In this document: positions 12,001 through 15,000 of the stretch, in pieces
Layout of the letters: each line of letters starts with the position of its first letter
How positions within the stretch are numbered: position 1 is the first letter of the stretch
Assembly: GCA_038534095.1 (NCBI GenBank)
Contig: JBCAXK010000009.1
Location: forward strand, 1 to 42,616
Length of the DNA stretch: 42,616 bases
Source: Chlamydiota bacterium
GTDB taxonomy: Bacteria > Chlamydiota > Chlamydiia > Chlamydiales > SM23-39
Reading direction: 5' to 3'
Program-made: the position numbers

Positions 12001-15000
12001 ACATGGACCTTTGAGCGTTTGTTCCTTTAGCCTCTCTCTAGTACGCTTATGAAAGGCTTGATCGGATAGGTAGATTTCCTTACCTCTTTCCTCTAAATAG
12101 TGAACTGTTATTGCCTTCCTCTCATCAGATGACGCTGCAAGATCGAGCGTTTCATGCGTAGTTACTTTGCAAAACAGGCAGGGCTGATAGCCAAGTGCGT
12201 TATAGAAGAGAGTTCGCCTGAAGAAAAAATTCTCTAAGGCGAATGGCTGTGGTGATGAGGATGAGTCCTGTAAGAATCCAGGCCAGTACAAGAGCAAAGG
12301 AGGGGAAAAGCGCCATCATCATAAAAAACAGAAAAGCTTCCCCTCGTTCGATCAGTCCGGGGCTATAGTAGAAACTTTTCTTCGATTCGTTCTTGCTGAA
12401 AATTCCGACCACGAGAAATGAGGTGACACAAAGAAAACAGCTCCCTAAAAGAGCAAAAAAAGGGATGCCTCTATCTACCGGTTGCACCAAAAACAGGGCA
12501 AAAAGGATGAGAAATTCCACAACCCGATCGCAAAAAATATCGAGCACCGTTCCTAGCGGAGAACTTTGATTGGTCTTTCTAGCATGGGAGCCATCGAACA
12601 TATCGAAATAGCCTGATACTAGCAGCAAAAAGCAACCGAGGTAACTCCGCTCGAAGAAAATAGCGATTGCTGCTAGGATCCCAAAGAAAGCCCCGAGGAG
12701 CGTCAAGCTATTTGAAGAGTAGTTTTGGGTCCAAGACCTTTCTAAAAGAGGCTGGATGAACCGTTTTTCAAAAGAATCTCGCAAGTATCCCTCTATCATG
12801 GTTTTTTCCACCTCCGAATCATCACAGGAATAAGAGAAAGAACTCCTAACGACAATAGAGCAAGCTGCATATGAAAGCTAAAGATATTTTTTATCTGAAA
12901 AGGTTCTCCTGAGGAAAAAATGCTACTGAGTCCTCTTCCAGTCTGCGCGTAGGCAAAACTTCCTGGGATAATCCCTAAAAGGGTTGTGAGGAAAAAGGGG
13001 AAGAAAGCTACCTCCAACAGAGCAGGAGCGATATTGACAAGCCAAAATGGGAAGATGGGCATCAGTCGTAAAAAAAAGAGGTAGGAGGCGGGTCTTGCCT
13101 GCAACTCTTGTTGGATTTTGCGCAAACGGGTTCCAAGTAGCCGTTTTATACTGCGGCTAAGAGCGTATCTAACAACCAAAAAAAGCATGGAAGCGCCCCA
13201 GGTAGCGCCGATCACGACATAGATTGTGCAAAAAGGTTGGGGAAATAGTACCCCTCCAAGAAGAGTAAATGCGGATCCTACTGGGATGCAAAGGAAGGTA
13301 AAAAGTGCGTACAAACTTACATAAACGCAAGGAGCTAAAATAGGGTGGTTGCTTACAAACAGAGAGAGCGATGTGTGCCGCTTTTGTAGCTCAGAAAAAG
13401 AGAGGTAACTCGATCCGAAAAAATACAAGAGAGCGCTTGCAATCAAGAGCAACAGGATCGGGATGAGACGTTTCGAAATCAAGGGATGATCGTGTGACAT
13501 GAAGCCGAACCTTAAGGGACTTTTGCGAGAGAAACGTCTCTAGTTACTAACCACAAATCGCAGTTTGATATGCAGCTTTCCTCTATTTTTTGCTTTGGCC
13601 CAGATATTTGTAAACTGTTATTACGAGAGAATATTCTAATGACAAAGAGACATATCGCTTAAGAAAAGGGAATCGTGCTCGCCAATAAAAGGCAAATACG
13701 TACAATGCACTCTAATGGACCCTGAAAGAAAGCGACTACAAAAAAACCGGGAAAAAAAAGAGCACTGGAGAAAGTGGGGACCCTACTTGTCAGAAAGGCA
13801 GTGGGGAACTGTGCGCGAAGATTACAGTCCTTTTGGGACTGCTTGGCAGTATTTTCCGTTTGATCAATCTGCGATGCGCACATACCGTTGGGGAGAAGAT
13901 GGGATTGGGGGCTTTTCAGACAATCACCAAAGGCTCTGCTTCAGTTTTGTTTTTTGGAATACCCGTGATGACATTTTAAAAGAACGGCTCTACGGCCTTG
14001 CTGGTGAAGAGGGGAATCATGGAGAAGATGTCAAAGAGCTCTACTACTATCTCGATGGGACTCCCACCCACTCATACATGCGCTATCTCTACAAATATCC
14101 ACAAAATCCGTATCCCTACCAAGCCCTTTTGAAAAGGAATAAAAGGCGCTCACTGAAGGAAGATGAGTATGAACTCTTAGATACAGGCGTTTTCTCACAA
14201 AAAGAGTATTTTGATCTTTTCATTCGGTACGCAAAACAGGGGCCGGAAGATCTTTTTATCGAGCTACTCGCTAAGAACCGATCGGCTAAAGAGGCGCCTC
14301 TACATATTTTGCCCACTCTTTGGTTTCGCAATACCTGGTCTTGGACTGGAGCGGAAAAAACGGCGCGTATAGAGAACAAAGGGGGAATGTTTGTTATGGA
14401 GCATCCCACTCTTGGTCGTTACCATTTTTATGCTGAAAAAGAGGGGACTCCCCTTTTTACAGAGAATGAATCCAATACACAAAAGCTTTTCCAGATCCCC
14501 AACAAAACGCCTTATGTAAAAGATGCTTTTCACGAATACATCATTCATAGCAACAAAGAAGCTGTGAATCCAAAAGAAGAAGGCACCAAAGCAGCGATCC
14601 AGTATATTCGGGACATCCCGCCCAAAGGAGAGGTTCTCTTGCGTTTCCGTTTAACCAAAGAGCCGAAAAAAATGCCTTTTGCTCAAGCTTCGTCTATTTT
14701 TGTGCAAAGACAAGAAGAGATGGAAGCCTTTTTTCATCCTCTTGTTCCGAAATATCTTGATGGGGATACAAAAAACATCCTCCATCAAGCGTTTTCTTCT
14801 TTGCTATGGGCCAAGCAGTTTTACCACTACGTCGTAGAAACTTGGCTCGAAGGAGATGATAAAGAGCAGCCGCCCCCGTTCCTAAGAAAAAAGGGGCGCA
14901 ACTATGGCTGGGAGCATCTATTCAATGATGATATCCTCTCGATTCCCGATAAATGGGAGTATCCCTGGTTTGCTTCTTGGGATACCGCTTTTCAGATGAT

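Follow-up and report, generated by a model that had tools for sequence, protein, structure and literature searches.

A YnjF-family phosphatidyltransferase and a COG0398-type VTT protein in a Chlamydiota bacterium: a probable two-gene remnant of a module found across bacterial phyla

The overlapping genes g00485 and g00484 of a Chlamydiota bacterium (GenBank assembly GCA_038534095.1) encode, judging by sequence, a VTT protein of the COG0398 type and an intact CDP-alcohol phosphotransferase of the YnjF family, and the pair is probably the eroded two-gene core of the cross-phylum ydjX/YnjF module. In this module, VTT and YnjF normally travel together with a pyridine-nucleotide disulfide reductase and, in free-living bacteria, also with an importer. 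About a quarter of the sampled Chlamydiota carry a YnjF subclade common with Legionellales and other intracellular bacteria, and a false lead, the own synthesis of phosphatidylinositol (PI) in a chlamydia, is now removed. The window, i.e. the whole stretch of DNA analysed, comprises 42,616 nucleotides (contig JBCAXK010000009.1, positions 1 to 42,616), and the features under study are listed in Table 1.

Table 1. Coordinates of the gene pair, its sequence features and its flanking genes in the window.
Feature	Position	Strand	Details
g00485, TVP38/TMEM64-type (COG0398-like) VTT protein, putative phospholipid scramblase, E. coli YdjX homolog	12796..13500	-	PF09335, 234 aa
g00484, YnjF-family CDP-alcohol phosphatidyltransferase	12200..12799	-	PF01066, 199 aa
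CDP-alcohol phosphotransferase signature D66-x2-D69-G-x2-A-R-x8-G-x3-D87-x3-D91 in g00484, intact	12527..12604	-	sequence
YnjF-family motif KSFYYSPGLIERGEA in g00484; A155 at the position of the essential PIPS R155	12335..12379	-	
ATGA start/stop overlap of g00485 and g00484	12796..12799	-	
yebC, convergent flank, context only; marker of the usual chlamydial module site	11301..12014	+	
GH63/MGH1-like hydrolase, divergent flank, context only	13715..16345	+	

Both genes and their four-base overlap, as claimed in an earlier note on this DNA, were recovered as open reading frames with PF09335 and PF01066 matches sharing an ATGA, and this overlap likely couples their translation. Scans for promoters and terminators gave no signal above the chance level. 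As for the membership of g00484 in PF01066, both the signature motif and the six-helix fold are present, and the signature residues are invariant across 40 alignment rows. The VTT protein g00485 matches PF09335 at 73.9 bits, whereas no UptA/DedA match was found for it in NCBIfam; it is 28% identical to E. coli YdjX and 40% identical to the product of the TVP38 gene of a Legionella plasmid module. Read from the sequence and compared with PMC10127716, its re-entrant helix 1 carries no acidic residues, and helix 2 has RLMPIFPF, a eukaryote-like tip. By analogy with its eukaryotic homologs, g00485 may act as a phospholipid scramblase.

Of the 371 homologs found for g00484, the best 120 are 42–56% identical to it, and wherever these carry a specific name, the name is YnjF. 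E. coli YnjF itself is 28% identical to g00484, the two having the motif KSFYY.GL.E in common, and the family motif KSF[YH]Y..G..E..E is present as well. The NCBIfam scores given in the earlier note were reproduced exactly (NF040950, 87.2 bits; NF045883, 61.4 bits; pgsA, E 1.1e-5), the first two being below the cut-offs for archaetidylinositol phosphate synthase (AIPS, 180) and phosphatidylinositol-phosphate synthase (PIPS, 170); a genuine PIPS, from Tsukamurella, reaches 307 bits on NF045883. AIPS is also the top NCBIfam match, at 63–81 bits, for the YnjF proteins of E. coli, the Legionella plasmid and Metabacillus. Hence PIPS-like scores are typical of the YnjF family as a whole.

In a tree of 28 rows rooted with PgsA, with only four PIPS/AIPS-like references and with PssA, g00379, a Glutamicibacter protein and 33 other rows left out, g00484, E. 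coli YnjF and the copies from Bacillota and Fusobacteriota form a single clade (support 97/96), which is sister to the four references (98/93). Within it, g00484 falls into a ten-row subclade (99/99) of Chlamydiota, Legionellales and similar MAGs. With the same four references, the AU test did not reject the joining of this intracellular subclade to PIPS (p = 0.098). The predicted structure of g00484 (pLDDT 93) has a PIPS/DIPPS-like fold and is closer to PIPS, DIPPS and AF2299 (Z 18–21) than to PgsA (13.2) or PSS (12.2), thus the earlier note had chosen the right structural branch. A search of the ESM Atlas returned PF01066 clusters and nothing else.

The pocket of PIPS comprises R94, R152, R155, R195, S132, Y133, K135 and R137; R155 and R195 are described as strictly conserved and critical, R155 binding the phosphate of inositol phosphate (PMC6506517). 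The equivalents of R94, R152 and R195 are kept in g00484 (R92, R152 and R187), but R155, S132, Y133, K135 and R137 are replaced by A155, G132, I133, S135 and N137, whereas R155, S132 and Y133 are kept in 4/4 PIPS/AIPS-like references. At the R155 position, among the best 80 of 265 named loci, we observed A in 77, T in two and R in none, with one locus unparsed. In YnjF of the E. coli type, R92 and R152, both present in the chlamydial clade, are missing, hence the subclades may differ in substrate, and the family may have no single common one, as the differing pockets suggest. Compared with PIPS and AIPS (NF045883, NF040950; PDB 5d92, 6h59), g00484 shares the fold with its N-terminal juxtamembrane helix, the signature motif and the three arginines, but differs in the five pocket residues, in a score at one third of the cut-off and in having neither Ino1 nor a PIM-type gene context.

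The YnjF locus of E. coli K-12 (b1750–b1758) consists of ydjX (VTT), ydjY, ydjZ (VTT), ynjA, ynjBCD and ynjE, followed by the convergent ynjF. It resembles the chlamydial pair in combining VTT genes with YnjF and differs, apart from the low identity and the two arginines, in that the YnjBCD importer, YnjA and YnjE are absent from the latter. Activation of ydjXYZ-ynjABCD by FNR and of ynjABCD by BaeR has been described (PMC3688515, PMC2731931), and the accessible part of PMC11656235 mentions YnjF solely as an up-regulated protein; no lipid product of this locus was named in the papers found. Searches of the literature on ynjF, on the ydjX/ynj genes, on DedA/COG0398/Msr, on TVP38/CDP-alcohol/oxidoreductase/DUF547 and on chlamydial PI synthesis, with subscription texts and supplements outside the search, yielded no function for YnjF and no description of what the module does.

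VTT, the reductase and YnjF recur together in records of Legionella, Metabacillus, Ilyobacter, Paracoccus, Klebsiella and Sphingopyxis, and a Pseudoalteromonas record combines the reductase, the importer and YnjF. The module is thereby represented, besides E. coli, in Bacillota, Fusobacteriota, Alpha- and Gammaproteobacteria, and VTT and the reductase are often one fused protein. Within 5 kb of YnjF in the best 80 of 265 named loci we observed VTT in 63, the reductase in 49, MsrA/B in 18, YnjA in seven and YnjB in none. When E. coli-type proteobacterial loci were widened (20/24), YnjB was nearby in nine, VTT in seven, the reductase in six and a CNT nucleoside transporter in one; YnjF as such was found in 26 of the 251 sampled Pseudomonadota genomes. 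The link between VTT and YnjF is not obligatory, since YnjF stands without VTT in 17/80 named loci (some cut by contig ends), in 13/20 proteobacterial loci and in 7/82 chlamydial genomes. The reductase has a CxxxxC centre, and Tyr replaces the His of lipoamide dehydrogenase in all 36 parsed of 49 copies; its closest solved relative is mercuric reductase. A weak search for fused forms of YnjF among proteins of 404–2000 residues found none at E 1e-15.

The two-gene unit of the earlier note exists as a pair, but the third core gene of the module, the FAD disulfide reductase, had been missed. COG0398 has been defined, with fusions to PF07992/PF02852, in PMC10127716. These fusions agree with the present case in the VTT subfamily and in the reductase partner seen in relatives; they differ in that the reductase is absent from this genome, and neither YnjF nor an importer nor MsrA/B is mentioned in the accessible part of that paper. 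With the module, the question why disulfide reductases are fused to DedA proteins of COG0398 gains a testable answer. As a separate observation, the Klebsiella IncR plasmid NZ_CP092394.1 (L123) bears at 5346–12645 a divergent full module with a DUF692/DoxX cluster and a YnjF 48.5% identical to that of E. coli, and its YnjF match is also present on 21 listed enterobacterial plasmid records, many of them from cattle.

We scored 300 Chlamydiota genomes, related ones not being independent, and found YnjF in 82, VTT in 119 and the reductase in 69. The 82 genomes with YnjF have VTT in 75 cases and the reductase in 64, and 64 of the 69 reductase genomes carry YnjF while five do not; relatedness of the genomes and physical linkage of the genes make this co-occurrence look stronger than it is. 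In one family (f4), a search of 29 genomes found no copy of any of the three. VTT and YnjF without the reductase are observed in 11/82 YnjF genomes, including the source genome and its congener, in both of which the FAD disulfide reductase and the importer of the module were looked for and not found. In relatives, the reductase is localized at the same site, just upstream of VTT, between it and the GH63-like hydrolase. The two-gene form seen here is the smallest natural unit for finding the YnjF lipid. The GH63/MGH1-like hydrolase adjoins the module in 11 of the best 80 of 265 named loci and may be a passenger at the insertion site. A long open frame of the congener was considered as a VTT–YnjF fusion and rejected, since the frames differ.

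On balance, we favour the reading that g00485–g00484 is a remnant which would make a minor phospholipid from an imported alcohol and scramble it. YnjF would transfer the phosphatidyl group from CDP-diacylglycerol to an imported small alcohol, host-derived in intracellular species; this donor is favoured because no nucleotidyltransferase was found among the neighbour clusters seen in at least four of the 80 loci. The alcohol accepted would be other than inositol phosphate, and the product, a minor phospholipid, would reach the outer leaflet through scrambling by the VTT protein. Where the module is complete, the reductase would keep the lipid head group reduced on the cytoplasmic side; the source genome and its congener would have lost it, synthesis and scrambling being retained. 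The idea of synthase and scramblase as one unit, put forward earlier, is plausible for both pairs of this genome, while inositol phosphate as the acceptor fails. With YnjF present even in E. coli, the wider interest lies in an orphan lipid.

Apparently, the head group is taken up from outside. YnjB adjoins YnjF in 9/20 proteobacterial loci, and one database protein (P0257, 591 aa, a single record) is a fusion of YnjF with the YnjB binding protein, which could be a read-through artefact. In Sphingopyxis, a TonB receptor and CNT stand in for the ABC system; in two loci (L125, 8731–10621; L168), the place of the ABC importer is taken by a CNT nucleoside transporter encoded immediately upstream of ynjF, and a PnrA-type ABC system is convergent to ynjF in two related loci. 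No such nucleoside transporters (CNT, PnrA-type ABC) were found in the 80 intracellular-clade loci, and a nucleoside head group is a weak lead. An importer of the YnjB type was found neither in this genome nor near these 80 loci, and sequence comparison yielded no solved relative for the YnjB binding protein, hence no hint of the ligand. The idea of an arsenosugar lipid was dropped, as no genes for it occurred among the recurring neighbour clusters.

The MsrA/B neighbours in 18 loci mostly start with a hydrophobic, signal-like stretch (33/35 reading frames, by hydropathy only, with no signal-peptide predictor). For chlamydial MsrA, 26 of 30 loci were parsed: this stretch is present in 18/18 from genomes with the reductase (one borderline) and in 4/8 from genomes without it, those four all belonging to one genus, hence exported MsrA is possible without YnjF. 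The MsrBA fusion of the source genome lacks a leader. The combination of a scramblase-fused cytoplasmic reductase with neighbouring exported Msr enzymes hints at a membrane-bound electron shuttle carried by a lipid: the YnjF lipid, having an imported S- or Se-bearing head group, would be reduced inside by the VTT-fused NAD(P)H reductase, flipped by VTT and would recharge, on the outside, exported MsrA/MsrB and other envelope repair enzymes. We consider this unlikely, and the same applies to its extension, in which the shuttle would be a lipid counterpart of DsbD/CcdA among amoeba-associated bacteria and the pair described here its decayed form, devoid of the reductase and of exported Msr.

Other explanations of the pair are less probable still. 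YnjF could serve as a back-up PGP synthase of low activity, with VTT as a general scramblase and the link to the reductase being mere stress co-regulation. Work by Li et al. in J Biol Chem in 2016 reportedly connected the residual PGP of pgsA mutants with ynjF of E. coli, and YnjF can stand alone; but PgsA lies on another branch both in structure (Z 13.2 against about 20) and in the tree, the genome has a PgsA-type protein of its own (g01090), and the importer adjacency and the YnjF::YnjB fusion would be senseless for glycerol 3-phosphate, which makes this role rather improbable. We give little credence to detoxification, where a metal(loid) or Se/S compound would be reduced, attached to a lipid and flipped out. 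The kinship of the reductase with mercuric reductase agrees with it, as do the SelD-N-terminal-like oxidoreductase, (seleno)protein-type AhpD, rhodanese and DUF692 clusters among the neighbours, whereas dedicated importers (ABC, TonB receptor, CNT) suggest that the compound taken up is a wanted one, and the pair persists without the reductase in the 11 chlamydial genomes.

It is likewise very unlikely that g00484 uses free host inositol, without a phosphate, to make PI or some other cyclitol lipid. The position of the YnjF clade as sister to PIPS would agree with this, an unphosphorylated acceptor would fit the loss of the phosphate-binding R155, and a sodium:solute symporter is found near 4/80 loci; however, no inositol-specific match was obtained for this symporter, the idea leaves the reductase, MsrA/B, AhpD-like and rhodanese neighbours unexplained, and E. 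coli, a YnjF carrier, is to our knowledge not known to make PI. Finally, the proposal of the earlier note that g00484 is a PIP synthase giving PI from host inositol phosphate is highly improbable and is abandoned here: the best NCBIfam and structure matches (AIPS/PIPS/DIPPS), the three retained arginines and the AU test speak for it, but the score is far below that of the genuine PIPS and common with YnjF of E. coli, whose genome lacks Ino1, the YnjF clade is separate with support, S132, Y133, K135 and R137 are lost, and R155 is A or T in 79/80 loci.

The second pair of this genome, g00380/g00379 on contig C6, was confirmed, including the matches of g00379 to pgsA (2e-18) and ClsA (2e-14), as was the total of three CDP-alcohol transferases. 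By BLAST, g00380 has no significant similarity to g00485, and it bears both the acidic tip of COG0586 (PISED) and two arginines (GRLIPFGVR). Orthologs of g00379 are found in 144/150 Chlamydiota genomes and in 26/26 of family f4, i.e. it is a core gene, and DedA adjoins it in 30/30 best loci, own genome included. The scores of g00379 on NF053678 (54.2 bits, cut-off 240) and pgsA (67.6, cut-off 109) are both below the cut-offs. Its group has GK.[TSA]T..Q in 28/30 loci, having lost the lysine that E. coli PgsA and g01090 keep in GK.KT..Q. Such a loss may be diagnostic of a CDP-type cardiolipin synthase, and g00379 is probably cardiolipin synthase-like, most likely of this type. DedA and g00379 make up a different, core chlamydial unit, unrelated to the YnjF pair; both pairs are real, but they differ in DedA subfamily and history, a point that the earlier note had missed. 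The 345 adjacencies of CDP-OH_P_transf and VTT_dom counted earlier in Chlamydiales probably pool these two unrelated pairs, most being the core one. In one genus (g54), an MsrA copy is located <2 kb from the g00379 ortholog (G090:C1:139790, G086:C18:101127, G057:C1:1848232) and a second MsrA begins with a signal-like leader, although neither YnjF nor the reductase was found there.

The general link between DedA and head-group synthases, regarded as new in the earlier note, is already in print, since PMC10193950 covers both pssA-petA-psd of Bacillus subtilis, with experimental transport of phosphatidylethanolamine (PE), and fusions of DedA to CDP-OH phosphatidyltransferases. There, too, a DedA-superfamily gene shares an operon with a CDP-alcohol phosphatidyltransferase, and the C6 pair with its COG0586-like DedA resembles it most. 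PetA, however, is of the UptA-type subfamily and moves PE, unlike the TVP38/COG0398-type g00485, and our genome has no PssA-type or Psd match. The absence of PF01658 claimed earlier was reproduced, and PF02666 likewise had no match in this genome (96.6% complete). Neither PS decarboxylase nor a PssA-type transferase was found genome-wide, thus there is no evident route to PE; Chlamydia trachomatis, by contrast, has one. An independent case similar to the C6 pair is seen on a Glutamicibacter plasmid (L119, 2204–3468), where a DedA gene overlaps a PgsA/ClsA-like gene by four bases.

Elsewhere in the window, the start of the contig (303–677, +) encodes the C-terminal part of a Pyr_redox_2 protein, which matches the module reductase weakly. 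The prfB reading frame (8600–9589, +) begins without the usual N-terminal part, presumably as expected from the programmed RF2 frameshift. An MFS transporter-like gene at 7097–8307 (+) is split into three reading frames (7097–7390, 7332–7598 and 7675–8307) and looks like a broken gene.
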